DNA of 38,415 nucleotides from Candidatus Firestoneibacteriota bacterium (GTDB lineage: Bacteria; Oederibacteriota; D2-FULL-39-29; JBDRBU01). Positions 7,785 through 33,537 of the stretch are shown piece by piece. Where the stretch lies: assembly GCA_043822305.1 (NCBI GenBank), contig JBDRBU010000067.1, positions 1-38,415 of the forward strand. The letters are read 5' to 3'. A program made the translations under genes and the position numbers. The notes below the pieces were generated by a model. That model had not been told where the DNA came from and ran no database searches. It saw nothing but the letters and a program-made list of their open reading frames with translations. The stretch's first letter is position 1; each line of letters opens with the position of its first letter.

Positions 7785-7808
7785 TGTCAAATGTCAAGGA
7801 CTGACCCC
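7785..7808 (+). repeat. CTGACCCC-family element, copy 1
   Basis: TGTCAAATGTCAAGGACTGACCCC; near-identical to 28962-28985. Confidence 0.85.
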
Positions 7809-7845
7809 TGTTTAACGAGTATGGAATATTCTCCTCATTTTTCTA

Positions 7846-7874
7846 TTTACTTTTAAAATGTTATGTATTATAAT
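7846..7874 (+). promoter_or_regulatory. Putative sigma70 promoter for the proS operon
   Basis: TTTACT-N17-TATAAT, 22 bp upstream of the proS ATG. Confidence 0.55.
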
Positions 7875-7896
7875 TTATATAATAGGGGGTGTTTTT

Positions 7897-9615
7897 ATGG
7901 AATGGACACATTGTTTAATTCCAACATTAAAAGAAATTCCTTCTGATGCAGAAATAATTAGTCATAAACTGATGTTAAAGGCTGGACTAATTAAAAAACT
8001 TGCTTCGGGAATTTATACATTACTTCCTTTGGGATTTAAAGTGATGCTTAAAATTATTAATATTGTTCGAGAAGAAATGAATATGGCTGGAGCAGAAGAA
8101 CTTCTTATGCCCATACTTTCCCCTTCTGAATTATGGAAGGAGACAGGGAGATGGGAATTGTACGGAGAAGAATTATTCAGAATAAAAGATAGACAGGATA
8201 GATATTTTGCTTTAGGACCTACGCATGAAGAAGTTATAACTGATATAGCCAGAAATGTGATTAAGTCGTATAGAGACATTCCAAAAAACTTCTACCAAAT
8301 CCAGAATAAATTTAGAGATGAGATTCGTCCTCGTTTTGGTGTTATGAGAGCAAGAGAGTTTATGATGAAGGATGCATATAGTTTTGACAGGGATGAAAAA
8401 GGTTCCGAAATCACTTATAAAAAAATGTTTGATGCCTACCTTCGTATATTTAACCGATGTGGTTTAAGATTTAAAGCAGTTGAAGCAGAATCTGGTGCAA
8501 TTGGAGGTTCTTTTTCGCATGAATTTATGGTCTTAGCCGAGAATGGAGAAGAGGTGATTATAAACTGTCCAAAATGTGATTATGCTGCAAATAAAGATAA
8601 AGCGGAAGGGATTAGCAAGTTTAAAGGAAACGAGAGTGATGAATTAAAAAAAATAGAAAAAGTTTTGACACCTGATAAAAAAACAATAAAAAGTGTTACT
8701 GAATTCCTAAAAAAAGAAGCGTGCGAATTGATAAAAACACTGATATATGTATGTGATGGGAAACCTATGGCAGTTTTAATTAAAGGAGATGACGAACTTA
8801 ATGAAAACAAGTTGAAAAGATTTTTAAACGCAAAAGAACTAACAATGGCCGAGGCTAAACTTGTTGAAAAGGTAAGCAATTCGCCAGTTGGTTTTGCTGG
8901 ACCTGTTGGATTGAATAATGTTGATATAATTGCCGATAATACAATTAAAAAAATGAAAAATTTTGTAGTAGGAAGTAATGAAAAAGATTACCACTTAATA
9001 AATGTTAACTTAGATAAAGATTTTAAAGTTAAAGAATTTGCTGATTTAAGATTTGTATCCGGTGAAGATATCTGTATAAAATGTGGAAGTAACTTAACAG
9101 AACTAAGGGGGATAGAAGTAGGTCATACTTTTAAGTTAGGAACTAAATATAGCGAAGCCATGGGAGCAGAATTTCTTGACGAAGATGGTAAAAGAAAATC
9201 TATAGTTATGGGTTGTTATGGAATAGGCATAACAAGAATTATGGGTGCGGCCATAGAACAAGGAAATGATGAAGATGGAATTATCTGGCCCGTGCCCATC
9301 GCCCCTTATTTGGTTATTATCACTGCCATAAATTACAAAGATGAGAAGATTAAAGAATTAGCAGATTCAATTTACGATATTTTAATAAAAAATAATATTG
9401 AGGTTTTGTTAGATGACAGAGATGTAAGTGCGGGTGTAAAGTTTAAAGATGCTGATTTAATAGGGATACCAATAAGAATTATTGTTGGAACAAAAGCAAT
9501 TAAGGAAAATGTATTGGAAGTAAGATTAAGAAAAACAAAAGAAGAATTTAAACTAAAGGAAGAAGAAGTTTTAGAAAAAATTAAAAAGTTGTCTATTGAG
9601 GATTTAAAAAAATGA
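7897..9615 (+). CDS. proS: Proline--tRNA ligase (bacterial type with editing domain)
   Basis: SHKLMLKAG, LGPTHEE, FRDEIRPRFGVMRAREF, GCYGIG, anticodon domain; start at MEWT after the AGGGGGT RBS. Confidence 0.97.
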   Translation: MEWTHCLIPTLKEIPSDAEIISHKLMLKAGLIKKLASGIYTLLPLGFKVMLKIINIVREEMNMAGAEELLMPILSPSELWKETGRWELYGEELFRIKDRQDRYFALGPTHEEVITDIARNVIKSYRDIPKNFYQIQNKFRDEIRPRFGVMRAREFMMKDAYSFDRDEKGSEITYKKMFDAYLRIFNRCGLRFKAVEAESGAIGGSFSHEFMVLAENGEEVIINCPKCDYAANKDKAEGISKFKGNESDELKKIEKVLTPDKKTIKSVTEFLKKEACELIKTLIYVCDGKPMAVLIKGDDELNENKLKRFLNAKELTMAEAKLVEKVSNSPVGFAGPVGLNNVDIIADNTIKKMKNFVVGSNEKDYHLINVNLDKDFKVKEFADLRFVSGEDICIKCGSNLTELRGIEVGHTFKLGTKYSEAMGAEFLDEDGKRKSIVMGCYGIGITRIMGAAIEQGNDEDGIIWPVPIAPYLVIITAINYKDEKIKELADSIYDILIKNNIEVLLDDRDVSAGVKFKDADLIGIPIRIIVGTKAIKENVLEVRLRKTKEEFKLKEEEVLEKIKKLSIEDLKK

Positions 9616-10625
9616 AATGTTTGGTCTTGCTTTCTGGCGGATTAGATAGTTCCATAGCCCTTAAACTAATGTTAGAGCAACAATTAGATGTTGAAGCCGT
9701 GAATTTTACTTCGGTTTTTTGCAGGTGTAATGGTAAAAATGGATGTAGTTATGCTGGTAATCTTTCTAAAAAATTAGGCGTTAAACTTCATTTTATTAAT
9801 AAAGGAGAAGAATATTTGGAAATAGTAAAAGCTCCAAAACATGGATATGGTTCAAATATTAATCCATGTCTAGACTGTAGAATATTTGCTTTTAGAAAGG
9901 CAAAAGAATTAATGAAGAAAATAGGGGCATTTTTTATTGTTACCGGCGAAGTTTTAAATCAAAGACCTATGTCTCAACATTTGCAGGCTATGAAGTTAAT
10001 AGAAAAAGAATCAGATTTAGTTGGGTTAGTTTTAAGACCTCTTAGTGCGGTGCATTTACTACCTACTATCCCGGAAGAAAAGAAGTGGGTAGATAGAAAT
10101 AAATTATTAAATTTGCAAGGAAGAAGCAGAAAAGACCAGATAAGATTAGCCAGAGAAAAGGAAATTACTGAATATTCCTGTCCATCTGGTGGCTGTTTAC
10201 TTACTGACCCGAATTTTGCAAAAAGAATAAAAGATTTAATCCAACATAAACCAGATTGGACAATAAAAGATGCAAATCTTTTAAAATACGGCAGGCATTA
10301 TAGATTAAGTAAAGATATAAAATTAATAGTTGGGAGAAATAAGCAGGAAAACGATATAATCGCTAGTTTTAAAGAAAAAGGGGATTTAATTATAGGATTA
10401 GAGGATTTTAAGGGGCCATTATCGTTGCTTAAATATATCTTTGAAGGTAAAAAAATGACTCTGACCCCTTTTTTAAGAATAGCTGCAAGCATAACAGCAA
10501 GGTATGGTGATATTTCAAATAAAGAAGAGTTTATCAGGGTATGGTATGAAGATGGTGAAAACACAAAACATTTAATTGAGGTTATGCCGGCTAAAGAAGA
10601 GGAATTAAATAAAACAAGGATTTAA
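9612..10625 (+). CDS. ThiI/MnmA-like PP-loop tRNA sulfurtransferase with DUF814/NFACT-R-like C-terminus
   Basis: SGGLDS PP-loop, NPCLDCR, TGEVLNQRPMSQ, PSGGCLLTD, GRHYRL...IVGRN. Confidence 0.8.
   Translation: MKCLVLLSGGLDSSIALKLMLEQQLDVEAVNFTSVFCRCNGKNGCSYAGNLSKKLGVKLHFINKGEEYLEIVKAPKHGYGSNINPCLDCRIFAFRKAKELMKKIGAFFIVTGEVLNQRPMSQHLQAMKLIEKESDLVGLVLRPLSAVHLLPTIPEEKKWVDRNKLLNLQGRSRKDQIRLAREKEITEYSCPSGGCLLTDPNFAKRIKDLIQHKPDWTIKDANLLKYGRHYRLSKDIKLIVGRNKQENDIIASFKEKGDLIIGLEDFKGPLSLLKYIFEGKKMTLTPFLRIAASITARYGDISNKEEFIRVWYEDGENTKHLIEVMPAKEEELNKTRI
10451..10474 (+). repeat. CTGACCCC-family element, copy 2 (in frame, encodes KMTLTPF)
   Basis: AAAAATGACTCTGACCCCTTTTTT inside CDS 9612..10625. Confidence 0.65.
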
Positions 10626-10628
10626 CAA

Positions 10629-11267
10629 ATGAATATTTTAATTACTTCAGGTCCGACAAGAGCATATATAGATGAGATTAGATACATATCTAATTATTCT
10701 ACGGGTAAGTTAGGAACATTAATTGCTGAAGAGTTTTTGAAAAACGGGAATAAAGTTACTTTTATTTACGGTAAAGGAAGCCTGCATCCAGATAACAAGA
10801 ATTTAAGATTAGTAGAAGTGCAAACTGTTGATGATTTAGCAAATATTTTAAAAGAAGAATTTAAAAAAAAATACGATGTTATTATTCATTTGATGGCTAT
10901 ACTTGATTATGTTCCTGATAATCAACTTAAAATTAAGGTGAAGTCTGATAAGAAAGTATGGAACTTGAAATTAGTTAGGACACCAAAGATAATCAAATTG
11001 ATAAAAAGAATAAGCCCAAAATCAATATTAGTTGGATTTAAATTAGAATATAATGTAAAAAAGAAAAAGTTACTAAAATCAGCGATTAAACTGATTAAAG
11101 AGAGTAAGGCGGACTATATAGTCGCGAATGATTATAAAAATATTAAAAGAGGAAAACATATAGCGAGTATTTTAAGTAGAAATGGCTTAATTAAAGATGA
11201 TATAATAGGCAAAAAAAATATAGCCAAAGAAATTGTTTCTTTGACTATTGAAAGGAGGAAAAAATAA
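10629..11267 (+). CDS. coaB: Phosphopantothenate--cysteine ligase (stand-alone CoaB)
   Basis: ILITSGPTRAYIDEIRYISNYSTGKLG, MAILDY, LVGFKLE, IVAND. Confidence 0.88.
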   Translation: MNILITSGPTRAYIDEIRYISNYSTGKLGTLIAEEFLKNGNKVTFIYGKGSLHPDNKNLRLVEVQTVDDLANILKEEFKKKYDVIIHLMAILDYVPDNQLKIKVKSDKKVWNLKLVRTPKIIKLIKRISPKSILVGFKLEYNVKKKKLLKSAIKLIKESKADYIVANDYKNIKRGKHIASILSRNGLIKDDIIGKKNIAKEIVSLTIERRKK

Positions 11268-11285
11268 TGGTAGCTGTCCCCTTTT
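11262..11285 (+). repeat. CTGTCCCC-family element, copy 3 (spans coaB stop and coaC start)
   Basis: AAATAATGGTAGCTGTCCCCTTTT. Confidence 0.75.
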
Positions 11286-11830
11286 CTAAGAAAAATATTT
11301 TAATTGGAGTATGTGGTGGTATTGCTGTATATAAAATTTGTGATTTAATAAATAAATTAAAATACAAAGGTGCAAATGTTGAAGTTATAATGACAGGTAA
11401 CGCGACTAAGTTTGTGACACCGCTTACATTTCAAACTTTATCAGGGAATCGTGTTTATGTTGATATGTTTGAATTAATTTCAAAAGAAACATTGGAGATA
11501 GACCACATCTCACTTGCAGAAAAATGTGATTTACTTGTTATTGCCCCGGCCACGGCAAATATTATAGGGAAGATTGCTTCTGGAATTGCAGATGATTTAT
11601 TAACCACAGTAGTCTTATCAACTAAAGCACCTATTCTTATCGCTCCGGCGATGAACACAAATATGTGGGCCAATAAAATTGTTATGAATAATGTAAAGAA
11701 ATTAAAATCATTGGGTTTTAAGTTTATAGGTCCATCTTATGGTATGCTTGCGTGTGGTAAAAAAGGTCTGGGAAGATTAGAAGAGATTGATAAGATAATG
11801 GCCGAGATAAAGAAAATATTAAAGGGTTAA
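11267..11830 (+). CDS. coaC: Phosphopantothenoylcysteine decarboxylase (stand-alone CoaC flavoprotein)
   Basis: GGIAVYK, HISLA, APATANIIGK, PAMNTNMW, LACG...GRL. Confidence 0.92.
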   Translation: MVAVPFSKKNILIGVCGGIAVYKICDLINKLKYKGANVEVIMTGNATKFVTPLTFQTLSGNRVYVDMFELISKETLEIDHISLAEKCDLLVIAPATANIIGKIASGIADDLLTTVVLSTKAPILIAPAMNTNMWANKIVMNNVKKLKSLGFKFIGPSYGMLACGKKGLGRLEEIDKIMAEIKKILKG

Positions 11831-11835
11831 ATAAT

Positions 11836-14469
11836 ATGAGCAATATTTTAATAGTAGATGATGAATATTTAACGCGGAATATTGTTAAAGATATATTGGA
11901 AAAAGAAGGATATTCCACTTTTTCTGCGAGTAATTATAAGGAAGCGTTAAATATAATAGAAAACGAGAATATTGATTTAGTATATCTTGATGTAAAAATG
12001 CCGGAAGTAGATGGTCTTGAAACTTTAAAAATGATAAAAGGTAAAGATGAATTACTGCCAATTGTTATGCTTACGGCAGATACTAATATTGATACAGCCA
12101 TAAATGCAATTAAATTAGGTGCTGAGGATTATATAACAAAAGATTCTATAAAGAATAGATTGTTGATTGTGGCCAGAAATATCTTAAAAACCCATAGTTT
12201 AAGTAAGGAGATAAATAATCTAAAAGATTATTTAAAAGATAGTATATCAAGAGAGAAGATCATATATGAAAGTAAGATAATGCAAGATACGATTAATTTG
12301 GCTGAAAAAGCAGCGAGTTCCAATATCGCCGTTCTTATTATCGGTGAAAGTGGAACGGGTAAGGAGTTACTGGCAAGATTTATTCATTCAAAAAGCAAAA
12401 GGTCAAATAAATCATTAATTGCTATAGACTGTGCTATGTTACCTGAGAATCTGGTGGAATCCGAGCTCTTTGGTTATGAAAAAGGTGCTTTTACTGGAGC
12501 AGTTAATAGAAAATTAGGTAGAATAGAGTTAGCCCATGAAGGAACTTTATTTCTTGATGAAGTAGGGAATTTAACTTCTGATGTTCAAAAAAAAATACTC
12601 AGATTTTTAGAAGAAAAAACTATTGAACATCTAGGTGGTAAAGAAACAATAAGAATTAGTGTTAGATTGATTGCAGCCAGTAATATAAATCTTGAAGAAG
12701 CAGTTAAAAATAAAATATTTAGAGAAGACTTATTTTACAGATTAAATGTTTTTACGATAAATCTTCCTTCATTAAGGGAAAGAATGGATGATATTCCGTT
12801 ATTAGCAGATTATTTTGTTAAAGAATTTTCAAAAGAACATTATAAAATAAATTTGAAAGTATCTCCTAAAGTAGTTAGAATACTTAATAATCACAACTGG
12901 CCAGGGAATGTCAGGGAATTAAAGAATGTGATGCAAAGAGCGGTACTTTTAGCGGAAAATCAAATTTTGCCTGAACATTTACCAAAATCACTTGTTTTAA
13001 AAACCAATCTGGATATTACGCAAGAAAAAGAGTCAGGTTTGTTAGAGATAGGGAAGAAAGCATCAGCCGAAGCAGAAAAAGAATATATAGTTAGAGTTTT
13101 AAAAGAAACAAACGGTAGTAAAGTTAAAGCCGCGAAAAGATTAAAAATAGATTATAAAACATTATTTAATAAAATTAAAGAATATGGAATATCAACATTT
13201 ATGTTTTTGATTATGTTGTTAAATTTTGTTAAGGGAATCGAGAAAGGAGATTTTAGTCTGGTCGAAGGATTTCCTTTAGAAGTTGAAGGACAATTTGTAT
13301 ATTCTTCTCCATTATTTTTTGATATTAATAAAGATGGAGAGAATGAGATAATATTCGCGTCATCTAACAAACTGTATGTTCTAGATAAAAAAGGGCATAA
13401 TTTAAAAGGATGGCCGGTTAATATTTATGAAAGATGTGAAAGTACTCCGGCCGTAAGTGATATAGATAAAGATGGATTACCCGAAGTAGTTCTAATAACT
13501 AAAGCCGGTCCGGATATTTCACAAGTATATATATTTGATGGAGGAGGGCATTTCAAATTCAATTCACCCTGGCGGACTAAAGGAATGGTGGACTTAGGAA
13601 GTTCTCCGGTTTTAGCTGATTTAGATGGAGATGGGTTTTTAGAAATAATTTTTTCAGTAGCGTCAATACCGGTTAATGGTGCGAATGTCGGGATTGTTTA
13701 TGTTTACAAAATGGATGGAAGTATTTTAAGTGGATGGCCGCAGATAGTTTTACCTGAAGGCAAAAATTCACAATGGCTTTCAACTCCTGTTATAGAAGAT
13801 ATAAATAAAGATAATATATTGGAAATTATTGTTGCATCTATCGTTGGGAAAATTTTTGTATGGCAGCCGAAAGGGTTTTTACTTGAAAACTGGCCTAGAT
13901 CTGGAGTTACAGATGATGTTTTTTATACAAAACCAGGTGTTTTTGATATTGATAAAGATGGAAAGTCAGAAATTTTAATAGGAAGTTGTAATAATGCACA
14001 GGCAGGAAATCTTTATGCGTGGAAATATAATGGAGAAAGTTTAGCAGGATTTCCTGTTAATTTAAAGAGCAATATTCAATCAGTATGCGCTACTGGAGAT
14101 TTAGCAGGAAATGGTAATATTGGGATAGTAATCGGGACAAATCTGGGTAATAAAGTTTGGGCATTAAACAATACTGGTGAAATTCTCCATGGCTGGCCAG
14201 TTGAAACAAAGGGCTGGATGTGTAACAATCCATCCTTAGCCGATGTAGATGGGGATGGAAAATTGGAAATTTTTATTGGATGCAGAGAGCCATTACTTTA
14301 CGGATTTTATTTTAATGGCAAGATAATGCCTGGATTTCCATTAGAATTAACAAAAGAACCGTATATAATAAACAGAACACCCGCAATTACTATTGATAAA
14401 GAAGGGAATAATTATATATGTTATAATGCCGATAAGAAGATATTCTTATGGAAGAGGGGTAAAAAATGA
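11836..14469 (+). CDS. Sigma54-dependent response regulator (REC-AAA+-Fis HTH) fused in frame to a hydrophobic segment and FG-GAP/VCBS-like repeat domain
   Basis: REC (ILIVDDE, LDVKMP), [31 protein letters not shown] ending KIKEYGI; then [11 protein letters not shown] and about 7 G(W/F)P...DxDxDGxxEI repeats. Confidence 0.85.
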
Positions 14470-15449
14470 GCAAACTATTAGTATTTACACAAGATAAAGT
14501 TTTTGAAGAAATCGAGAATGTTAAAGCAGAGGATTTACAAAAATATTTATCTGATAAAAATAATATATTATGGTTAGACATAGAAAATTCATCTGAAAAA
14601 GACATAGATATGCTTATAGATATTTTTAATTTTCATTCCCTTTCCATAGAAGATGTAATATTCCCGCATAATTATCCTAAAATAGAAACATTTGAGGATT
14701 ATTTGTTTTTAATAATACATGCTGTTAATTATAATGAGGAAGAACAGACTAAGATAATCTCACAGGAGATTAATATATATTTTGGGGAAAATTATATAGT
14801 TAGTGTGCATGAAGAATCTATAAAATATATTCATTCTGTAATTCAAAGAGCTAAGTCAAATCCAATGATTATGTCCAAAGGTACTGATTTCTTGCTTCAT
14901 TTAATACTTGATGGAATTACGGATAGTTTTTTCCCTGTTTTAGATATTATTAATGACAAAATTGACAAAATAGAAGATAAGATATTAATTGGTAATTCGG
15001 GTCAGAAAGTAATTATGTCTGAAATGTTGGACTTGAAGAGAAATCTACTTAATTTAAGGAAGATAGTGGGTCCATTGAGGAATGTTTATAGTACTTTAAC
15101 AAGGAGCGACCTACCATTTATAAGGACAAAAACGATAATTTATTTTAGGGATGTTTATGACCATATGTTAAGAATTTTTGACTTAATAGAAGCCTACAGG
15201 GAATTACTTTCTGCAACTATGGAAGCAGATTTTACGATTATATCAACAAGGTTAAATGAAATAATGAAAACATTAACGATAATCGCTACATTTATGATGC
15301 CTCTTACTTTAATCACCAGTTTTTACGGTATGAATGTAAAAGCACCAGAATTTGAATGGGGAATATTCGGATATATATTTGTCTGGATTATAATTATATT
15401 AGCCACAGTAGGGATGTTTCTGTATTTTAAAAAAAAGAAATGGTTTTGA
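14466..15449 (+). CDS. corA: Magnesium/cobalt transporter CorA
   Basis: GMN signature (FYGMNV), two C-terminal TM helices, KKKKWF end. Confidence 0.95.
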   Translation: MSKLLVFTQDKVFEEIENVKAEDLQKYLSDKNNILWLDIENSSEKDIDMLIDIFNFHSLSIEDVIFPHNYPKIETFEDYLFLIIHAVNYNEEEQTKIISQEINIYFGENYIVSVHEESIKYIHSVIQRAKSNPMIMSKGTDFLLHLILDGITDSFFPVLDIINDKIDKIEDKILIGNSGQKVIMSEMLDLKRNLLNLRKIVGPLRNVYSTLTRSDLPFIRTKTIIYFRDVYDHMLRIFDLIEAYRELLSATMEADFTIISTRLNEIMKTLTIIATFMMPLTLITSFYGMNVKAPEFEWGIFGYIFVWIIIILATVGMFLYFKKKKWF

Positions 15450-15452
15450 AAT

Positions 15453-17042: not shown

Positions 17043-17070
17043 AAGGAAAGTCAAGGAGGTGAAATTATTT

Positions 17071-22759: not shown

Positions 22760-22783
22760 AAATATGGTGTCTGTCCCCATTTT
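22760..22783 (+). repeat. CTGTCCCC-family element, copy 4 (contains the mutS ATG)
   Basis: AAATATGGTGTCTGTCCCCATTTT. Confidence 0.8.
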
Positions 22784-25385
22784 AGATACTATAACTCCGA
22801 TGATGAAACAGTACAGAGAGATAAAGAAAAAATACCCTGAGGCAATACTTTTTTTTAGATTGGGGGACTTTTATGAAATGTTTTTTGAAGACGCTAAAGT
22901 AGCTTCTTCTTTACTCCAGATTGTTTTAACGAAGAGGAATTCAAGGGGGGTGGGTACTGGTAGAAGTATTCCTATGTGTGGCATACCATACCATGCAGCC
23001 TTAAACTATATAACAAAATTAATTAAAAATGGATATAAAGTAGCGATATGTGAACAAGTAGAGGACCCTAAATTAGCCAAAGGGATAGTCAAGAGAGAAG
23101 TTGTAAGATTGATTACTCCTGGAACTGTTATTGAAGATGCTTTACTTGAAAAAAAAGCCAATAATTTTTTATTTTCATTGAAATTAAATAATAAATTAGC
23201 TGGACTTTCATTTGTTGATGTTTCTACTGGCGAGTTTTTAATAACAGAAATTGACCTAGCGAGTTATCCCGATAAAATTTTTGAAGAGATTGATAAATTT
23301 AAACCACATGAGGCCGTATTGCCAAAATCATATGAGATCACACAAATAAAACTACTCAAATTTTTAAAAGAGAATAATATTTTAATTGATTATTATGAAG
23401 ACTATTGTTTTGACTTAGATATTACAAAAGAAACATTACTTAAACATTTCAAAATAAATTCTTTGGCTGGATTTGGGGTTGATGATTTTACTCTGGGTAT
23501 ATCTTGTGCCGGGGTTGTAATAAATTATTTGCAGGAAACTCAAAAAGGAATTCTTCTTCATATAAATAAATTAACTCCTTACAATTCTACTGAGTATATG
23601 CTGGTTGATTCTTCTACGAGGAAAAATCTTGAATTATTCGAGAGAATGTCCGATAAGAATCAAGAGGGTACTTTATACTGGGTTATTGATAAAACAGTTA
23701 GCCCCATGGGTGGTCGGTTATTAAAAAGATGGATTTTGGAGCCACTTTTAAGTATTACGAAAATTAAAGAAAGACAAGAAGGGGTAGAGGAGTTGTTAAA
23801 AGATTATATTTTAAGAACAGAGATTAGAAAAGTTATATCTAATTTATCGGATATCGAAAGGATATCAGGAAAAATAGGAACTAAATCAGCAAATGCCAGA
23901 GATTTAATAGCCTTAAAAATCTCTTTAAAAGAAATTCCAGAGATAAAAAAACTTTTAGAAAATGTAAAGTTTAAAATTTTAACAGAAATTAAAAATAATT
24001 TGGATGAATTAAAAGAAGTTATTTTTCTTGTTGAAAGTAATATTGAAGAAGAACCGCCTTTAAGCATAAAAGAAGGTAATATTATAAAAGACGGCGTTAA
24101 TGAAGAACTTGATAAATTAAGAAATATTAGCCGAAGCGGTAAAGAATGGATAGTTAAATTTCAAGAGCAGGAGAGGAAACGTACGGGTATAAGTTCTTTA
24201 AAAGTGGGCTTTACTTCTGTTTTTGGCTATTATATAGAAATTAGCAGGGCGAATTTATCTTTTGTGCCAGATAATTACACAAGAAAACAAACTCTAACTA
24301 ATGCCGAAAGATTTATAACTCAGGAATTAAAGGAGTACGAATCGTTAGTTCTATCAAGTGATGAGAAAATAAACCTGCTTGAATATGAATTGTTTTGTGA
24401 AACAAGAGAAAAAATAATTACTTACATACCAAATATACAAAAGAATTCTTTTTACATTAGTTATCTTGACTCCATATCTTCATTATCAGAAGTTGCTTTT
24501 GCTAACAAATATATTAAGCCAGAAATAAATGATACTGAAGTTATTGATATTAAAGATGGAAGACATCCTGTTATAGAGTTGATAGTTGAAAATGGTTTTG
24601 TTCCAAACGATACTTATCTGGGTAAAGAGAATCAATTGATAATTGTAACAGGGCCAAATATGGCGGGTAAATCAACTTATTTAAGACAGGTGGCCTTATT
24701 ATCGTTACTGGCCCAGATTGGTTCTTTTATACCAGCAAAAGAAGCAAAAATAGGGATAGTTGACAGAATATTTACAAGAGTAGGAGCGTCTGATAATTTA
24801 GCTTTAGGACATTCTACTTTTATGGTAGAGATGCTTGAGACAGCTAATATTTTAAATAACGCTACCCAGAGGAGTCTTATAATCTTAGATGAAATAGGTA
24901 GAGGCACGGCTACTTTTGATGGGATTAGTCTTGCCTGGGCGGTTGCAGAATATATCCATAATAAACTTGGAGCGAAAACCCTTTTTGCAACGCATTTTTA
25001 TGAATTAACTGAATTATCTTTAACTTTACCAAGAGTTAAAAATTATAATATATTAGTCAAAGAATGGAACGATGAAATAATATTTTTACGAAAAATTGCA
25101 GAAGGAGCTGCGGATAGGAGTTATGGTATCCAAGTGGCCAGATTAGCCGGATTACCCAAAGAAATTTTAAACAGGGCAAAAGAAATATTGTCTAACTTAG
25201 AAGATGCAAATTACAAAATAGGAGGGGCTGGGGAGAAAAGCAATCAATTATCTGTATTTGAAGATTTTAATAATGAGATAATAGAAGATTTTAAAAAAAT
25301 GGATATAAACAAATTAACACCTGTTGAAGCATTGAATAAATTAAGTGAATTAAAAAAGAAGATGAAAAGTAGGGACAGCTCCTAG
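22764..25385 (+). CDS. mutS: DNA mismatch repair protein MutS
   Basis: TPMMKQY, GDFYEMF, TGPNMAGKST, DEIGRGT, SYGIQVA. Confidence 0.97.
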   Translation: MVSVPILDTITPMMKQYREIKKKYPEAILFFRLGDFYEMFFEDAKVASSLLQIVLTKRNSRGVGTGRSIPMCGIPYHAALNYITKLIKNGYKVAICEQVEDPKLAKGIVKREVVRLITPGTVIEDALLEKKANNFLFSLKLNNKLAGLSFVDVSTGEFLITEIDLASYPDKIFEEIDKFKPHEAVLPKSYEITQIKLLKFLKENNILIDYYEDYCFDLDITKETLLKHFKINSLAGFGVDDFTLGISCAGVVINYLQETQKGILLHINKLTPYNSTEYMLVDSSTRKNLELFERMSDKNQEGTLYWVIDKTVSPMGGRLLKRWILEPLLSITKIKERQEGVEELLKDYILRTEIRKVISNLSDIERISGKIGTKSANARDLIALKISLKEIPEIKKLLENVKFKILTEIKNNLDELKEVIFLVESNIEEEPPLSIKEGNIIKDGVNEELDKLRNISRSGKEWIVKFQEQERKRTGISSLKVGFTSVFGYYIEISRANLSFVPDNYTRKQTLTNAERFITQELKEYESLVLSSDEKINLLEYELFCETREKIITYIPNIQKNSFYISYLDSISSLSEVAFANKYIKPEINDTEVIDIKDGRHPVIELIVENGFVPNDTYLGKENQLIIVTGPNMAGKSTYLRQVALLSLLAQIGSFIPAKEAKIGIVDRIFTRVGASDNLALGHSTFMVEMLETANILNNATQRSLIILDEIGRGTATFDGISLAWAVAEYIHNKLGAKTLFATHFYELTELSLTLPRVKNYNILVKEWNDEIIFLRKIAEGAADRSYGIQVARLAGLPKEILNRAKEILSNLEDANYKIGGAGEKSNQLSVFEDFNNEIIEDFKKMDINKLTPVEALNKLSELKKKMKSRDSS
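25365..25385 (-). repeat. CTGTCCC-family element, copy 5 (inverted; contains the mutS stop)
   Basis: Minus strand CTAGGAGCTGTCCCTACTTTT. Confidence 0.65.
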
Positions 25386-25513
25386 TCATTTTCTTTTAGA
25401 TACTAAATCACCAAAATCTTGAACTAAAACTCAAAAACTTTATTATTTTTATACTTTCCTATACTGTAAACAAAACAGCATTTTTTTTATTTTATTTTAT
25501 TTTATTTTTTCAC

Positions 25514-25543: not shown

Positions 25544-25622
25544 ATTTTATGGATTGGAGATGAGAGGAATGAAATTCCTATCATCATTTTAATAATTAAA
25601 TTAAAGGCATTGAGATAATTTT

Positions 25623-26384
25623 ATGAGTATGAATTTAAATGAAGCCGAAATTTTACAAATTGAAGAGATTCAAACGAAATATTATATGAATCCAATTTTA
25701 AGGCGAATTGAAAAATATGTTGAAATGAAAAAAAGCAAAAAGTTGGCATGGATTAATTCATTTGATGAAATTTACAAATTAATGCTTGAATCCAAAGATG
25801 ATGTTGAAAAACTTTTAATAAAGAGGGAAAAGTTAGGTGAAATAAAGAGTAAAGATCAAGCAAGAAAAAGTATTGCGGGTTCAGTATTCTCAAATACTAT
25901 AATTTTCATTTTCTTAAAAAATAAAGAAGAGGGAAATATTTCAAAAGATATTTTTATTACTTCTAAATATAAAAGATTAAAAGAATTTGAAAAGATTTTG
26001 ACTATTTATGTTGATTCAGAAACACAAAAACCGGATTGTGATTTAGTTATTTACAAATTAAAACAGGATAAAAGTTTTGATAAATGTATGATATTGTCTT
26101 TAAAAACTTCATTAAGAGAACGAGCCGGACAAACTTATAAATGGAAATTATTAATGGAAATTGCTTCATCTGATAATGAAATTAAGAGAAAGTATAACAT
26201 AAAATACAATCCGGTTGGTTTTCCATTGGTTGCTTTTGCTACAGTAAATTTTTATAACGAAATAAATAATCCACAGCATAGAGGTATGTTTAAGTTTTTC
26301 GATAAATCTTTTATTGCTAAGAATATTGATGTGGATTTTATTAATCGAATGTCTTCTTTAGTTGATTTTCTAAAAAATTGGTAA
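25623..26384 (+). CDS. Type II restriction endonuclease, BsaWI-like (CCGG-core family)
   Basis: KPDCDLVIY...ILSLKTSLRERAGQ permuted PD-(D/E)xK motif; translationally coupled to an MTase. Confidence 0.72.
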   Translation: MSMNLNEAEILQIEEIQTKYYMNPILRRIEKYVEMKKSKKLAWINSFDEIYKLMLESKDDVEKLLIKREKLGEIKSKDQARKSIAGSVFSNTIIFIFLKNKEEGNISKDIFITSKYKRLKEFEKILTIYVDSETQKPDCDLVIYKLKQDKSFDKCMILSLKTSLRERAGQTYKWKLLMEIASSDNEIKRKYNIKYNPVGFPLVAFATVNFYNEINNPQHRGMFKFFDKSFIAKNIDVDFINRMSSLVDFLKNW

Positions 26385-27739: not shown

Positions 27740-27748
27740 TGGTAGAAT
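27720..27748 (+). promoter_or_regulatory. Putative sigma70 promoter for aminotransferase-serA
   Basis: TTGCAG-N17-TAGAAT with extended -10 TG. Confidence 0.45.
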
Positions 27749-27803
27749 ATAATAGAAAAATTAAAGAGAATATTACATCTGAATCTATCGTGAGGAGAAA
27801 AGT

Positions 27804-28952
27804 ATGAAAAAAAGATATATAATGTCACCCGGTCCAGTTGAAATCCCACCACAAGTTTTATCTGTGGCAGGTATGCCTATAATTCACCACAGAACACCTG
27901 AGTATAGAAAAATATTTGCAGAAGTTACTGAGGGTTTGAAATATGTATTTCAGACAAAAAACGATATTTTGATATTTCCATCAGCAGGAACAGGAGGGAT
28001 GGAAGCTGCTATTGTTAATTTAATTTCACCTAATGATAAAATTATTGTAGCAGCATCTGGTCAGTTTGGTGAAAGATGGAGTGCTATTGCAGAATCATAT
28101 GGTATTAATGTAATTAAACTGTATTCTGAATGGGGAGAAGAGGTTGATTCTAAAAAAATTGAAGAAGAACTTGAGAAGAATAAGGATGTAAAAGCAGTAT
28201 TTACTACTTTAAGTGAGACCTCTACAGGTGTTGAAAATGATATAGAAGCAATTGGGAAAGTAGTAAGTAAAACAAATGCAGTATTAGTAGTTGATGCAAT
28301 CTCTGGAATGGGAGCAATTAAATTTAAAACAGACGAATGGAATGTTGATGTTGCTGTAGTTGGTGCACAAAAAGGTTTAATGATTCCACCTGGGCTGGCT
28401 ATGATTTCTTTAAACGAAAAGGCAAAAAAACTTGTAGCAGAAAGTAAAACACAGAAGTATTATTTTAGTTTTGATAAAGCATTAAAGTCCTTAACAAAGG
28501 ATAAATTGCCTGATACACCGTATACTTCGTCAGTTTCTTTGATAATACAATTAAAAGAATCAATTAAATTAATAAAAGAAGAAGGATTAGAAAATATTTG
28601 GACAAGGCATGAGAAAATTGCAAATGCAGTTAGATCTGGTGTCCGTGCATTAGGGTTAAAACTATTTGCTAAAGGTAGACCAAGTAATGCCGTTACTTCT
28701 ATCTGGGCACCGGAAGGAATAGATGGTGATGCGATAAATAAGAAAATTAGAGATGATTATGGTATTACTATGGCCGGTGGACAAGGAAAGATGAAAGGTA
28801 AAATATTTAGAATAGGACATTTAGGTTATGTTGACAGATTTGATGCAGTTATTGCAATCTCAGCAGTTGAAATGGCATTAACTGAACTTGGGTTTAAAGT
28901 AAATTTAGGGGCTGGTGTAAAGGCAGTAGAAGAAGAGTTGATTAGTAAGTGA
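27804..28952 (+). CDS. Class V PLP aminotransferase (alanine-glyoxylate/serine-pyruvate family; likely phosphoserine aminotransferase)
   Basis: PGPVEIP, HHRT, ETSTGV, VDAIS, AQKGLMIPPG, FRIGHLG; adjacent to serA. Confidence 0.88.
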   Translation: MKKRYIMSPGPVEIPPQVLSVAGMPIIHHRTPEYRKIFAEVTEGLKYVFQTKNDILIFPSAGTGGMEAAIVNLISPNDKIIVAASGQFGERWSAIAESYGINVIKLYSEWGEEVDSKKIEEELEKNKDVKAVFTTLSETSTGVENDIEAIGKVVSKTNAVLVVDAISGMGAIKFKTDEWNVDVAVVGAQKGLMIPPGLAMISLNEKAKKLVAESKTQKYYFSFDKALKSLTKDKLPDTPYTSSVSLIIQLKESIKLIKEEGLENIWTRHEKIANAVRSGVRALGLKLFAKGRPSNAVTSIWAPEGIDGDAINKKIRDDYGITMAGGQGKMKGKIFRIGHLGYVDRFDAVIAISAVEMALTELGFKVNLGAGVKAVEEELISK

Positions 28953-28961
28953 AAAGTGAGT

Positions 28962-28985
28962 TGTCAAATGTCAAGAGCTGACCCC
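28962..28985 (+). repeat. CTGACCCC-family element, copy 6
   Basis: TGTCAAATGTCAAGAGCTGACCCC; 22/24 identical to 7785-7808. Confidence 0.85.
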
Positions 28986-28998
28986 ATTAGAGGTGGAT

Positions 28999-30588
28999 AT
29001 GTACAAAGTATTGGTAACGGATCCGATTGCAGAACAGGGTGTTGAAATTTTAAAGAAACAAAGTGATATTGATGTGGATGTTAAACTAAAAATTAAGCCA
29101 GAAGAACTTAAATCTATTATAGGAAATTATGATGCTTTAGTTGTTCGTTCTGAAACTAAAGTTACAGCAGATATTATTGAAGCAGGTAAGAACTTAAAAG
29201 TAATAGGCAGGGCCGGAGTAGGGGTTGATAATATTGATGTTCTTTCTTCTTCCAAGAAAGGTATTATTGTTATGAATACTCCAGATGGGAATACTATAGC
29301 CACGGCCGAACATACAATGTCTATGATTATGGCTTTATCTCGGAATATTCCTCAGGCGGATTTGTCAGTTAAGAGTAAAAAATGGGATAGAAAAAAATAC
29401 ATTGGAGTTGAATTATATGGAAAGATTTTAGGCATAATAGGACTTGGTAGGGTTGGAAAAGAAGTAGCCATTCGAGCAAAAAGTTTTGGGATGGAAATAA
29501 TTGGATATGACACATACTCGTCTAATGAAATGGCAAGAAAACTTGAAATTAGATTAGTGTCATTAGATGAATTAATATCTAAATCGGACTACATAACTGT
29601 TCATACGCCTCTCACAAAAGAAACAAAACATTTAATAGGTGAGAAAGAAATAGTAAAGATGAAAGAAGGGATAAGATTGATTAATTGTGCCAGAGGTGGT
29701 ATAATAGATGAGACAGCGCTTTTAAATGGTTTAAAATCCGGGAAAGTAGCCGGTGTGGCCTTAGATGTTTATGAAGTTGAACCACCGCCACAAGATTCCC
29801 CATTATTTAATTTAGAAAATGTAGTTTTAACTCCACATCTGGGTGCATCAACTGAAGAAGCGCAAATCAGTGTATCTGTAGCCGTAGCTAATCAAATAAT
29901 AGAAGCATTAAGAGGAGGAACAATAAGAAATGCAGTAAATTCGCCATCAATACCTGCTGATATATTAAATCAGATGAAACCGTATATTGACCTGTCAGAA
30001 ATATTAGGCAGAATACTTGTTCAAGTTATAGAAGGATATATTAAAAATATAAAAGTAGAATACAAAGGGCAGATTGTTGACTACAATACTTCATTTTTAA
30101 CATTAAGTATTGTAAAAGGGATTTTAACTCCAATGGTTAAAGAGCCAGTGAATTTTGTTAATGCACTATTAATCTTAAAAGAAAAAAATATTCTGGTTTC
30201 TGAATCAAAAAGCAATGAAGTCACGCATTATACTAATTTTATTGAGTTAGAAATTACTACTGATAAGGACAAAAAATTTTCTATTGCTGGGACCGTGTTT
30301 GGTAAAGATAGCATTAGGATAGTGGAATTAGGTAATTATGATATTGATTTAGAACCAGCGGAGAATATGCTTATTATATATAATTTAGATAAACCAGGTA
30401 TTGTGGGTAATATTGGAACGACACTTGGCCAAGAAAGGATAAATATAGCGAGTTTACAGATGGCCAGAAAAGAAAGTGGTGGTGAGGCTATGACGATATT
30501 AACCGTTGATAGTGTGGTCAATGATGAGATATTAAAAAAGATATCACAAATTGAAAATATCAAAGAAGTAAAATTTGTGAAAGGGTAA
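28999..30588 (+). CDS. serA: D-3-phosphoglycerate dehydrogenase (type I, ASB and ACT domains)
   Basis: GRAGVGVDN, GLGRVG, NCARGG, TPHLGASTEEAQ, DKPGIVG ACT domain. Confidence 0.96.
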   Translation: MYKVLVTDPIAEQGVEILKKQSDIDVDVKLKIKPEELKSIIGNYDALVVRSETKVTADIIEAGKNLKVIGRAGVGVDNIDVLSSSKKGIIVMNTPDGNTIATAEHTMSMIMALSRNIPQADLSVKSKKWDRKKYIGVELYGKILGIIGLGRVGKEVAIRAKSFGMEIIGYDTYSSNEMARKLEIRLVSLDELISKSDYITVHTPLTKETKHLIGEKEIVKMKEGIRLINCARGGIIDETALLNGLKSGKVAGVALDVYEVEPPPQDSPLFNLENVVLTPHLGASTEEAQISVSVAVANQIIEALRGGTIRNAVNSPSIPADILNQMKPYIDLSEILGRILVQVIEGYIKNIKVEYKGQIVDYNTSFLTLSIVKGILTPMVKEPVNFVNALLILKEKNILVSESKSNEVTHYTNFIELEITTDKDKKFSIAGTVFGKDSIRIVELGNYDIDLEPAENMLIIYNLDKPGIVGNIGTTLGQERINIASLQMARKESGGEAMTILTVDSVVNDEILKKISQIENIKEVKFVKG

Positions 30589-30600
30589 CCAGGAGAAATG

Positions 30601-30640
30601 GGCAGACCAAAGAAAAAATAATAGGTATCTGTCCCTATTT
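30601..30640 (+). repeat. CTGTCCCT-family element, copy 7 (with GRPKKK* tail)
   Basis: AATAGGTATCTGTCCCTATTT (30620-30640) identical to 33517-33537. Confidence 0.9.
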
Positions 30641-30650
30641 TTGAAATAAT

Positions 30651-32933
30651 ATGGAAAAACAAATATTTACATTTGGATTGCAGATGCCAACACCGCTCCT
30701 TGTTTTTATTTTAGTGGCCATACCTGTAGCTGTTATTCTTCTATATAGATGGGTAGTTATTAAAGTATCGACCAAGGATAAAATCATTTTTGCTATTATT
30801 AGAATTTTAATGTTGTATTTATTGTTTGCTTGTATTATGCAACCGGTGATAAGAGGCAAGAAATTAAATGAAGCATATTTTGCAGTTCTAATTGATGCTT
30901 CAAAGAGTATGACTCTTGATGATGCAGAAGGCGGTAAACAAAGAATAGAAGTAGCAAAAAAATTAATTAGTTCAGGAGATTTGATAAAAGAGTTACAAAA
31001 AACATTTAAAGGTAATACTATAAAGTACTACAGTTTTGCCATGGACTCAAAACCTTTGTCTAAAGATATCCTGGAGTTAAAAGCTGATGGTGAAAAAACA
31101 GATTTAGTGAAAGCGGTAAATTCAACAGTAGATGCTTTGCAAACCGTTCCACTTTCAGGTATGCTTTGTATTACTGATGGTGTTGATAATGTTAATTCTC
31201 CGAATGTAGTGTCTCAGTTAGGATACTCTATGAGGGAAAAGGCAATTCCTCTTTATTTTGTAGGTGTAGGTAGTGAAGTAAAACTTAAAGATGTGCAGGT
31301 AACAGAAGTAACAGGTCCTGATGCTATTGAAGAGAAACAGCCGCTTACTTTAAATATTACATTTTCAAGTCAAGGTTATCCGGCAAAAACTGTTCCGGTC
31401 TCAATTTACGAGGATGAGAAGTTAATTAAGAAGTTTGATCAACATTTACCAGCAGACGGAACAATAGGGGCTAAGTTTAGTCATAATCCAACAGGAATTG
31501 GATTTAGAAGATATAAAGCAGACATACCTATAGATAAAGATGAATTTGTTAAGGACAATAACTCTTCTTTTTTTACAGTCAATATTATAAAGAAAAAAGA
31601 AAAGCTGAGAATATTATTTGTTCAGGGTTTCATAAGCGAAGAATTCAGGTTTATTAGTCGAACCTTAAAAGTGGATCCTGATTTAGAGTTAGTTTCTATT
31701 TCTCGTTCTGGACCTGGCACATATTTAATTTCGGGCGTGAAAGATGATAAGGAATATGCTGCACTTTCTGCTGGCTTTCCAAAAGATAAAGAAGCATTAT
31801 ATAGATACGATGCTATAGTTTTTACTAATTTAACCCCAGACTTCTTTAACAAGGAGCAGTTAGATACATTATCTGATTTTGTGAAATCACATGGTGGAGG
31901 GTTTTTAGCCTTAGGTTCAAGTGATAATTTTAAACCAGCATGGAATAATACTCCTGTTGCTGATATGTTACCTGTTATTCTGGAGAAAGACGCTTCATTA
32001 TTCAGGTCTTTTCCTACTTTACCAGAAGGGCCATCAAATCCATATGAATTTAAGATGGAACTAACACCGGAAGGAATGATGCATGAAATATTTATAAACG
32101 AAGGTGATTTTAAGAAGGATAAGGAAAAATGGGAATCTATGCCAACTTTATATGGGTATGCTCCAGTGGTTAAAGCAAAAGCAGGAAGTACAGTTTTAAG
32201 TGTTCATAATAAAGATAAAAATCAGAATGGTCGAAGAATAATACTTGCCGTTCAAAATTATGGTGCCGGCAAGACGGCGGCCTTAACTGTTGATTCGTTA
32301 TGGAGATGGAGGTTAAAGAGTCCATCAACAGATAAAAGTTATGAAAAATTCTGGAGGCAGTTGATACACTGGTTAACTACTGAAAGGTTAGAAAAAATAA
32401 GTTTAAAAATAGACAGGAATTTTTATGCAGTTAAAGAAAATGTAAAGATCGAAGTAGCAGTGTTTGAAAGAGAATTTCAATCTAAAGCTACTAATGTTAC
32501 CGCAAATATAATAGACCCTCAAGGGAAATTGAATAAAGTAAAATTAGATTTTTCTATAGGTGGTAATTGGGAGTATGAAGGCAAGTTTGTTCCACAGATG
32601 AGAGGTGGTTACAGGATAAAAGTGATAGCGAAAAATAGTTTTGGCCAGGAACTATTAAGTAACGAAATTTATTTTGATGTTAGAGAAACAGGCTTAGAGT
32701 TTTCCAATGTTACACTAAATGAAACTGGTTTAATGTCTTTAGCCTCAATAAGTAATGGGAAATATTATAAACCAAATGAAGTTACCAGTAAAATTAGTAA
32801 AGATTTAACAAAAGCAAATGTATTTTATATACAGGTAGATAAGGATTTATGGGATAGCCCCTGGGTCCTGGGTGCATTTATTTTCTTGTTTGCCCTAGAA
32901 TGGATTTTAAGAAAAATGAAAGGGTTAATTTAG
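30651..32933 (+). CDS. Membrane protein with VWA, Ig-like and glutamine-amidotransferase-like domains
   Basis: Two N-terminal TMs, MIDAS DASKS, ITDGVDN, GGGFLALG, LWRWR, C-terminal LWDSP...EWILRK TM. Confidence 0.75.
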   Translation: MEKQIFTFGLQMPTPLLVFILVAIPVAVILLYRWVVIKVSTKDKIIFAIIRILMLYLLFACIMQPVIRGKKLNEAYFAVLIDASKSMTLDDAEGGKQRIEVAKKLISSGDLIKELQKTFKGNTIKYYSFAMDSKPLSKDILELKADGEKTDLVKAVNSTVDALQTVPLSGMLCITDGVDNVNSPNVVSQLGYSMREKAIPLYFVGVGSEVKLKDVQVTEVTGPDAIEEKQPLTLNITFSSQGYPAKTVPVSIYEDEKLIKKFDQHLPADGTIGAKFSHNPTGIGFRRYKADIPIDKDEFVKDNNSSFFTVNIIKKKEKLRILFVQGFISEEFRFISRTLKVDPDLELVSISRSGPGTYLISGVKDDKEYAALSAGFPKDKEALYRYDAIVFTNLTPDFFNKEQLDTLSDFVKSHGGGFLALGSSDNFKPAWNNTPVADMLPVILEKDASLFRSFPTLPEGPSNPYEFKMELTPEGMMHEIFINEGDFKKDKEKWESMPTLYGYAPVVKAKAGSTVLSVHNKDKNQNGRRIILAVQNYGAGKTAALTVDSLWRWRLKSPSTDKSYEKFWRQLIHWLTTERLEKISLKIDRNFYAVKENVKIEVAVFEREFQSKATNVTANIIDPQGKLNKVKLDFSIGGNWEYEGKFVPQMRGGYRIKVIAKNSFGQELLSNEIYFDVRETGLEFSNVTLNETGLMSLASISNGKYYKPNEVTSKISKDLTKANVFYIQVDKDLWDSPWVLGAFIFLFALEWILRKMKGLI

Positions 32934-32945
32934 GAGGTTGAAAAT

Positions 32946-33488
32946 ATGATAGAGATAAGGCTTCATGGTAGGGGTGGTCAGGGTGTTGTCACTGCTGCTG
33001 AACTACTGGCCATATCAGCATTTTCGGATGGAAAGTATATTCAAGCGTTTCCTACATTTGGTTCTGAAAGGATGGGTGCACCTGTAGCCTCGTTTGTAAG
33101 AATTTCTGATAAAAATATTAGGGTCAGATCACAAATCTATGAGCCGGATTATGTTATTGTCCAGGATTCAGCTTTAATAGGAAGTGTAGATGTGTTTGCT
33201 GGATTAAAAAAAGATGGGTTAGTTCTTATAAATACCGAAAAACAGCCATCCGAATTGAAATTGAAAGATGTAAAAAATGTTAAGACAATCCCTGCTACAA
33301 AAATAGCTATAGAAATTTTAGGGAGGCCAATACCAAACACAGTTTTAATAGGTGCTTTCGCTGGATTAACTGGATTAGTTTCATTAGATGGAATAAAGAA
33401 AGCAATGAGAGAAAGGTTTAAATCAGTAGAAATAGCAGAAAAGAATATTTTAGCGGCTGAAAAAGCATATAAGATGATGAGAAAGTAA
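32946..33488 (+). CDS. porC: Pyruvate/2-oxoacid:ferredoxin oxidoreductase gamma subunit
   Basis: EIRLHGRGGQGVVT, FGSERMGAPV, PNTVLIGA. Confidence 0.93.
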   Translation: MIEIRLHGRGGQGVVTAAELLAISAFSDGKYIQAFPTFGSERMGAPVASFVRISDKNIRVRSQIYEPDYVIVQDSALIGSVDVFAGLKKDGLVLINTEKQPSELKLKDVKNVKTIPATKIAIEILGRPIPNTVLIGAFAGLTGLVSLDGIKKAMRERFKSVEIAEKNILAAEKAYKMMRK

Positions 33489-33500
33489 AATTGAAATTGA

Positions 33501-33537
33501 GGAACACCATTTAAAAAATAGGTATCTGTCCCTATTT
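33501..33537 (+). repeat. CTGTCCCT-family element, copy 8 (with GTPFKK* tail)
   Basis: AAATAGG-tatctgtc-CCTATTT stem-loop; 21 bp identical to copy 7. Confidence 0.9.

Follow-up and report, generated by a model that had tools for sequence, protein, structure and literature searches.

What are the short elements built around CTG(T/A)CCC(C/T) that recur at gene boundaries along a contig of Candidatus Firestoneibacteriota, and how did they come to be there? The window, by which we mean the whole stretch of 38,415 nucleotides that was analysed (contig JBDRBU010000067.1, here C67), belongs to a 2.149-Mb, 96.8%-complete assembly of 125 contigs with a GC content of 31.6%. An earlier note on this DNA had pointed to eight such elements and proposed that they are solo end fragments deposited in trans by an HUH enzyme. 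In our view the window elements are likely to be copies, dispersed and mostly single, of the terminal inverted repeats (TIRs) that bound TIRtrons, cassettes with one gene that encodes a TIRYT, an HUH/Y1 tyrosine transposase. The evidence comprises the identity of copies and TIRs, the inverted bracketing of five out of five transposase genes, the conservation of the motif next to homologues in other phyla, the absence of the elements from relatives, and their strong enrichment at gene edges and in intergenic DNA. The tie of the solo copies to Y1 cassettes, as the earlier note proposed it, is thereby supported; that the enzyme cuts and deposits DNA in trans is put forward below by analogy.

Transposase cassettes and their ends

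Six genes in the genome score above the Pfam cut-off for PF01797. One of them encodes a 146-aa protein of the IS200 type (C64), and bracketing by the motif is absent from it. The other five encode proteins resembling REP-associated tyrosine transposases (RAYTs; REP, repetitive extragenic palindromic), with lengths of 223–323 aa and scores of 50.8–66.5 bits against a cut-off of 23, and are located on contigs C51, C100, C81 (two genes, C81a and C81b) and C68. The window is free of transposase genes, as the earlier note had remarked, all five RAYT-like genes being on other contigs. The five paralogues are 36–39% identical to the first. Their alignment shows invariant N58-H59-x-H61, Y119 and N123-P124 (N-H-x-H and Y-x-x-x-N-P), with the motif variants NHVH (three genes), NHIH and NHYH; LWE, LWQ and LFQ; and YIELNP (two), YVERNP (two) and YIHLNP. 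The 323-aa paralogue carries a C-terminal DnaA_C-like helix-turn-helix. Among solved structures, a profile of the five sequences matched E. coli TnpA-REP best (4er8, E = 2.7e-8), followed by the IS200/IS605 transposases 2xm3, 2a6m and 2vhg (E of 1e-6 to 1e-3); a search of solved structures with a single TIRYT gave no match, TnpA-REP being reached only by the five-sequence profile.

Inverted repeats that end in the motif flank all five RAYT-like genes on both sides, an association of Y1 genes and motif that the earlier note had anticipated. Each repeat consists of a conserved outer core, GGGG(A/T)CAG (CTG(T/A)CCCC on the other strand), and 8–16 family-specific bases, and each of the five diverged paralogues has its own TIR. 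The outermost end reads GGGG/AGGG-[AT]-CA upstream of the gene and TG-[AT]-CCCC/T downstream. The inverted matches are exact over 12–28 nt, and lie 16–95 nt upstream of the open reading frame (ORF) start and within 30 nt of its end. The motif GGGG[AT][CG]A[CG] (GGGGWSAS), cited in the earlier note, is indeed printed for the same enzyme group in the motif descriptions of two papers (PMC3733652, PMC6006769). It is present in four of the five cassettes: exactly at both ends for C51 and C81a, and exactly at the downstream end for C100 and C68, whose upstream ends have AGGG. The C81b end, GGGGTCAA, mismatches the last position of the consensus.

The copies of each cassette end in the genome were counted as matches to a 16- or 17-mer with at most two mismatches, with the reversed string as control:

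C51 end: 32 copies, control 0
C100 end: 43 copies, control 1
C81a end: 32 copies, control 0
C81b end: 12 copies, control 0
C68 end: 2 copies, control 1

The flanking 16-mers of the cassettes occur 15, 18, 17, 9 and 4 times. Judged from their sequences, the cassette ends are the founders of the dispersed families.

Repeats in the window

All eight elements are present where the earlier note had placed them, seven on the forward strand and one (25365) on the reverse strand; the family names used here are those of the clustering described further below.

7785–7808, + strand: solo end-repeat of family D, TGTCAAATGTCAAG-NN-CTGACCCC; intergenic, upstream of proS
10451–10474, + strand: solo end-repeat of family B, AAAAATGACTCTGACCCCTTTTTT; inside a ThiI-like/NFACT-R_2 gene (Pfam), with the in-frame reading KKMTLTPF
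11266–11285 (11262 in the earlier note), + strand: GGTAGC-CTGTCCCC, supercluster 0; across the coaB stop and the coaC start
22760–22783, + strand: ATATGGTGTCTGTCCCC element with a short stem, ATGG/CCAT; start and first codons (MVSVP) of mutS
25365–25386, − strand: AGGGACAG form, supercluster 0; last codons (KSRDSS) and TAG stop of mutS
28962–28985, + strand: solo end-repeat of family D; between a class-V aminotransferase gene and serA, 5 nt upstream of the ribosome-binding site
30620–30642, + strand: hairpin type AATAGG-TATCTGTC-CCTATT, subfamily GGTATC; between serA (upstream) and a gene of 760 aa
33517–33537, + strand: hairpin type; between the genes of the gamma and delta subunits in a 2-oxoacid:ferredoxin oxidoreductase operon

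Two elements match a resident cassette end at 16 of 16 positions: 10451 matches the C81a TIR, and 22760 the C100 TIR. The elements at 7785 and 28962 match, over 21 specified positions, a TIR that brackets TIRYT genes in other genomes of the phylum. The remaining four of the eight are joined to these families by single linkage and have no exactly matching gene; compared directly, they share with the resident TIRs at best 5 or fewer of 8–9 family-specific bases. The two near-exact pairs reported earlier were recovered, with 21 of 21 identical nucleotides between 30620 and 33517 and 22 of 24 between 7785 and 28962. Seven of the eight elements lie at gene boundaries, again as described; the exception is 10451, which lies inside an ORF and in frame. 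Elements sit between housekeeping genes, and even within them, and leave these genes intact. The 11262 element encodes the start of CoaC, MVAVPF. The exact 8-mer CTGWCCCY occurs in the window 10 times and not 8 times, against about 1.3 copies expected under a Markov model of order 3. The two additional occurrences (36965 on the + strand and 33120 on the − strand) are unclustered coding-sequence background.

Orthologous sites in relatives

Among the genomes compared, the nearest are from different families of the order (62–72% identity), and the comparison therefore rests on junctions anchored on the flanking proteins rather than on empty sites at the DNA level. Seven sites, all but 7785, were compared in this way with same-order relatives, and the elements were not conserved at any of them, in line with the expectation of the earlier note. 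The core is absent from the aminotransferase/serA junction (28962) in 10 of 10 relatives, and from the site of 30620 in both relatives that have both flanks. At the 33517 site it is absent from 11 of 11 relatives, and the junction measures 29 nt in four relatives of genus g2 and 82 nt here. Both ends of mutS lack the core in 11 of 11 relatives: at the 5′ end (22760) the N-termini are three residues shorter in the four genus g2 relatives, and at the 3′ end (25365) the C-termini differ. The coaB/coaC junction (11262) is core-free in four relatives, where the CoaC N-terminus is four residues shorter. At 10451, seven of seven orthologues show a 6-residue gap exactly at the residues encoded by the element. 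This puts the inserted unit at about 18 nt, and on this alignment the element is an in-frame insertion of six codons.

The aminotransferase/serA junction of family f3 relatives (L014, L015 and L016, corresponding to G010, G011 and G002) has inverted arrays of GTCTATAAAAGTC-like units, 146–220 nt. The same operon spacer is apparently filled by different repeats in different lineages.

Cassettes and repeats in other genomes

The association of enzyme and motif extends beyond this genome. In a sample from other phyla, 80 homologous loci were kept, of which 56 had complete flanks. GGGG[AT][CG]A[CG] was found within 200 nt upstream of the gene in 31 of these 56 loci, and in the opposite orientation in one; its complement was found near the 3′ end in 26 loci, and in the wrong orientation in five. 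Typical ends from other phyla (GGGGTCAGAG..., GGGGACAGACCACG...) closely resemble families B and GGTGTC. TIRYT homologues are present in 24 of 30 relatives. At 11 of 19 loci of relatives from the same phylum, the best bracketing inverted repeat contains a core of the GGG[AT]C type.

The 23-nt repeat of family D brackets long-form TIRYT genes in three genomes (G021, G018 and G015); G021 and G014 also contain it as pairs without a gene. Of 18 genomes of the phylum from outside the class, 6 have the repeat; among the 12 from the same order or class it was found in none. Family D is most numerous in the genome studied here (15 copies, control 0), and no cassette bracketed by it was found in the assembly. 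The pattern RYCTGWCCCYWTT has 50 matches here against 3 in the control, and 0–18 in the 30 relatives, with controls that are similar except in G019; the expansion of the repeats is therefore lineage-specific. In G019, a member of the same phylum from family f11, the matches to RYCTGWCCCYWTT are mostly GCCTGACCCTTTT.

Abundance, families and placement

Across the genome CTGWCCCY occurs 338 times, where 50, 85, 64, 71 and 120 copies are expected under Markov models of orders 0 to 4. The motif is thus in 3- to 7-fold excess over composition-matched expectation. The octamer CTGACCCC is 9.6-fold over-represented and ranks among the genome's top over-represented 8-mers.

Families were derived from a genome-wide listing and single-linkage clustering of 738 occurrences of the relaxed core TGWCCCY:

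Supercluster 0: 171 copies; A-run, 5–6 family-specific bases, CTG(T/A)CCC(C/T), T-run
Subfamilies of supercluster 0, named by the bases before CTG: GGTGTC 36, GTCGC 31, GACTC 25, GGTATC 22, GGATG 14, GGCGC 10, other 33
Cluster 1: 43 copies; GC-rich palindrome
Family D (cluster 2): 12 copies, or 15–16 with looser patterns; TGTCAAATGTCAAG-NN-CTGACCCC
Cluster 3: 10 copies
Cluster 5: 5 copies
Unclustered: 487 copies, no family

Another two clusters, of 6 and 4 copies, are confined to ORFs and were treated as background, which gives 497 unclustered core hits. Each of the eight window sites falls into a cluster: supercluster 0 holds six of them and family D two. They do not constitute the single family that the earlier note had seen in them: they fall into three or four families of 18–24 nt, whose common part is only the 7–8-nt core TG[AT]CCC[CT]. 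A one-family reading was rejected for the genome as well, about 171 copies merging into a continuum and family D and clusters 1, 3 and 5 staying separate. The proposed density of about one element per 5 kb also fails genome-wide, with 241 clustered elements in 2.149 Mb, or about one per 9 kb.

In the eight copies of family D that are perfect at the 21 specified positions, the dinucleotide between TGTCAAATGTCAAG and CTGACCC varies (AG, AT, GA, GG or TG). It occupies positions 7799–7800 and 28976–28977 of the window, and is CT in other genomes. The pattern suggests that family D consists of two constrained boxes with a free dinucleotide between them. The palindrome of cluster 1, GGAGTCGGGGTCGTCCCTGACCCCGACATAC (for example on contigs C7, C9 and C19), bears the core in its 3′ arm, and its folding is strong, with a mean of −8.6 kcal/mol; no cognate gene was identified for this cluster.

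We related the repeats to a simple longest-ORF gene model with 1,985 ORFs, in which 91% of the genome is coding and intergenic DNA makes up 9.3%. Half of the CTGWCCCY copies (169 of 338) touch this intergenic fraction. The 241 clustered elements divide into 157 in intergenic DNA, 53 at most 40 nt from an ORF end and 31 deeper in ORFs, in contrast to 404 of the 497 unclustered core hits that lie deep in ORFs. The clustered elements are strongly enriched in intergenic DNA and at gene edges. Family D copies sometimes lie between the ribosome-binding site and the gene and provide the ATG start.

The strand bias of 7:1 seen in the window does not generalise. All genes of the window lie on the + strand, and its GC skew ranges from +0.15 to +0.32. 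With local GC skew and gene direction as proxies in this 125-contig assembly, supercluster 0 is split 91:76 with respect to skew (p = 0.28) and 82:70 with respect to gene direction, which indicates no orientation preference; the strand biases of its subfamilies are weak. Family D is co-oriented with genes at 11:1, and cluster 1 is split 7:36 with respect to GC skew, so that the two biases are opposite. The cause of such family biases cannot be assigned, because gene direction and skew are confounded.

Origin of the single copies

By analogy with IS200/IS605 TnpA and E. coli TnpA-REP, a TIRYT would recognise and bind its TIR on single-stranded DNA, cut it through a covalent tyrosine intermediate and then rejoin the strand, and it could mobilise copies in trans. 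DNA bounded by TIRs would be copied to new sites as whole cassettes, as gene-less TIR pairs and as units down to about 18 nt, and copies would persist where they are harmless: between genes, at gene starts and stops, and in frame. More tentatively, a single end-repeat of 18–24 nt may itself be mobile and be moved by a TIRYT in trans without a second end. Each paralogue would then serve its own family; the orphan families would either owe their movement to cross-mobilisation or descend from cassettes since lost. We regard this extension as possible and rather doubtful. If it is true, the 18–24-nt unit would be among the smallest mobile DNAs known, capable of inserting in frame into conserved genes and of rewriting gene starts and stops within operons.

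The same TIRtron origin could be reached by another route, in which the single copies are remnants of whole cassettes or of gene-less TIR pairs that lost one end, or footprints of imprecise excision. We think this unlikely. The intermediates that such a route supposes do coexist in the genome, which holds five full cassettes, gene-less pairs and an apparent internally deleted cassette, and chemistry of the IS200/IS605 type normally needs two ends. Inverted pairs within 300 bp number ten in cassette geometry (GGGG...CCCC outward) and one in the opposite geometry; about half of the ten gene-less pairs join ends of the same family, and one same-family pair on C36 resembles an internally deleted cassette of the C100 type. 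However, only 21 adjacent pairs within 300 bp were found among the 241 clustered elements, and about 200 elements have no partner at that distance. The 10451 element adds exactly six codons, in frame, to a conserved gene, and several elements sit in operon spacers of 40–80 nt, where the harmless trimming of a cassette of about 750 bp to 18–24 nt is the less parsimonious course.

The origin of the window elements from TIRtron ends has to be held against several observations that speak against it. An exactly matching resident cassette is missing for six of the eight elements in a 96.8%-complete assembly, namely the two of family D, the two of the GGTATC hairpin type, 11262 and 25365. The end of the C68 cassette has not spread (2 copies against 1 in the control). 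In the relative G019 the RYCTGWCCCYWTT pattern matches 18 times and its control twice, but a TIRYT homologue was not found at E ≤ 0.001; this genome may carry an orphan repeat family, or its enzyme gene may have been missed. An HUH element strictly targeted to the lagging strand might show a strand bias, and supercluster 0 is unbiased. The comparison with the nearest genomes, 62–72% identical, yielded no polymorphism evidence of recent movement. In the literature searched, biochemical work on TIRYTs was not found.

A possible functional site spread by its usefulness

The motif could instead be mainly a functional site, such as an operator, an RNA hairpin bound at its loop or a terminator or attenuator, that has spread by usefulness and not by mobility. 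We consider this very improbable. Support comes from the subfamilies that fold into hairpins whose loop is conserved and whose stems covary (AAGTAGG/CCTACTT and AATATGG/CCATATT). The stems reported in the earlier note are real in such subfamilies, but are not a general feature of the repeats. The CCC of the core is paired with upstream bases in 100% of GGATG, 73% of GGTATC, 70% of GGCGC and 50% of GGTGTC copies, and in 17% of family D, 6% of GTCGC and 0% of GACTC copies, with a background of 12%; in family B pairing is likewise at 0%. A universal hairpin was accordingly rejected, folding being specific to subfamilies.

The flanking A-runs and T-runs are like those of bidirectional terminators. 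Intrinsic terminators were nevertheless rejected: the subfamilies of supercluster 0 fold weakly (means of −0.6 to −4.3 kcal/mol with DNA parameters), and copies occur within operons, at start codons and in frame in ORFs, without preference for gene orientation. A regulatory role finds some support in family D, in its co-orientation with genes and its frequent position just upstream of the ribosome-binding site, and in the DnaA_C-like helix-turn-helix of one TIRYT. Against it stand the lack of conservation at all seven orthologous positions compared, the balanced orientation of the supercluster, the in-frame copies inside ORFs and a scan of the window at Rfam gathering thresholds with no matches. 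Nor would a functional site account for the presence of these sequences on both sides of Y1 transposase genes in several phyla.

Relation to known systems

RAYT-like genes flanked by inverted repeats have been named TIRtrons and their enzymes TIRYTs, with GGGGWSAS as a common motif, in the account of Di Nocera, De Gregorio & Rocco (2013, BMC Genomics 14:522, PMC3733652). The present arrangement is therefore not a new system. In the literature searched, the two terms occur only in that paper and in Quentin 2018 (preprint and journal versions). What the passages on TIRtrons describe agrees with our findings in the single RAYT-like Y1/HUH gene bracketed by inverted repeats at similar distances, in the motif, and in the presence of several TIRYT genes with different TIRs in one genome. 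It agrees also in the dispersal of TIR families, described there as moderately abundant, as singles, dimers and clusters, in a limited number of genomes. Relative to those passages, this genome differs in its AT-rich host, in having five paralogues with at least five related TIR families as well as orphan families, and in copies that supply start and stop codons, together with one in-frame insertion of six codons. The unusual features here are the host phylum, the five paralogues with parallel repeat families, the orphan families, and the copies in gene starts and stops with the in-frame insertion.

TIRYTs correspond to TnpA-Y1 subclass 2.1 in the classification of Quentin, Siguier, Chandler & Fichant (2018, BMC Genomics 19:475, PMC6006769), where the tabulated entry for the subclass reads 'REP: no'. 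That entry gives NHVH or NH[YF]H, W[EQ] or FQ, and YIELNP or Y[IV]HLNP, with a median length of about 238 aa, and some members are described as having a C-terminal DnaA_C-like helix-turn-helix. The key motifs of the five proteins match Table 1 of that paper, and the helix-turn-helix recurs in our 323-aa paralogue; the assignment to the subclass was made by motif comparison. Subclass 2.1 is probably the RAYT Group 1 of Bertels (2017, PMC5581495), which is our own reading of the label '2.1 (1)' in the same table. In the relevant part of Bertels' survey, the flanking 16-mers of Group 1 have a mean of about 12 occurrences, close to the counts for the cassettes here, and abundant repeats are linked only to Groups 2 and 3. 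Set against these sections of the two surveys, the present genome has about 240 copies, with related families summed, around five such genes.

The IS200/IS605 elements (IS608, ISDra2) share the HUH/Y1 catalytic core and serve as the model for strand-specific transposition of single-stranded DNA. They have a transposase of about 150 aa, asymmetric subterminal hairpins and near-identical multiple copies. Identity with them was rejected: our paralogues are 36–39% identical to the first and 223–323 aa long, and their ends are inverted repeats. REP sequences and bacterial interspersed mosaic elements with TnpA-REP, and REPINs, are alike in being short extragenic repeats tied to a single-copy, domesticated-looking Y1/HUH enzyme, in the inverted flanking of its gene and in the presumed cut-and-rejoin chemistry on single-stranded DNA. 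The chance that the elements are classical REPs or REPINs served by RAYTs of the E. coli/Pseudomonas type is close to nil: although the enzymes are RAYT-like with TnpA-REP as their closest solved relative, some copies are hairpins and true GTAG-tagged palindromes also exist in the genome, the GTAG/CGTC guide tag is absent from all eight elements and from the family consensuses, the repeats are mostly non-palindromic singlets and not inverted doublets, and the enzyme signatures NH[VIY]H and Y[IV][EH][LR]NP are those of subclass 2.1 and not of 2.2 (DHLH, YIHYNP) as listed in Table 1 of PMC6006769.

TIRYTs are the largest group of RAYT-like HUH proteins, and the two surveys, in the parts concerned with this group, treat it as having few or no associated repeats (PMC6006769, PMC5581495). 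The genome studied here provides a compact natural test set, with five intact paralogues that each have their own end, families of 12–43 dispersed copies, orphan families with cognate genes elsewhere in the phylum, gene-less pairs, and insertion sites that can be compared with relatives. It makes enzyme and substrate pairs available for studying recognition and DNA movement by the TIRYT class. The repeats illustrate that very short mobile repeats can reshape gene boundaries, and they hold a lesson for annotation: the start or stop codons of mutS, coaC and other genes here sit within repeat copies.

Neighbouring genes and other repeats

CoaB and CoaC activities usually reside in a single fused protein, CoaBC, in which CoaC comes first. 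In the window they are encoded by two genes, coaB (DFP domain) and coaC (Flavoprotein domain), with coaB first (10629–11830), and the overlap of stop and start, TAATG, lies inside the repeat copy. The 877-aa ORF at 11836–14469 combines a response-regulator receiver, a sigma-54 activator AAA+ domain, a Fis-type helix-turn-helix and C-terminal FG-GAP/beta-propeller repeats; the combination of domains is unusual, unless the ORF possibly represents two genes. Two restriction-enzyme genes were also noted: one at 4558–7224 for a Type III res-like helicase-endonuclease of 888 aa, and one at 25623–26384, just downstream of mutS, for a BsaWI-like type II endonuclease.

A different element, built around AACAACCCCCTAACCCCC-TTTATTAAGGGGGAATTAAAA, is the genome's most abundant repeat, and its 16-mers occur 55–75 times (for example on C103, C109, C1 and C28). 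In a 5-copy variant of it, which constitutes cluster 5, CTGACCCC replaces CTAACCCC. Perfect palindromes tagged with GTAG (GTAGTCGCAGGC...GCCTGCGACTAC) are strongly over-represented genome-wide: AGCCTGCG occurs 135 times (13.6-fold) and GTAGTCGC 82 times. The GTAG palindrome type is present in a same-class relative as well (L030, G012:C95, at about position 40–110 of the junction).

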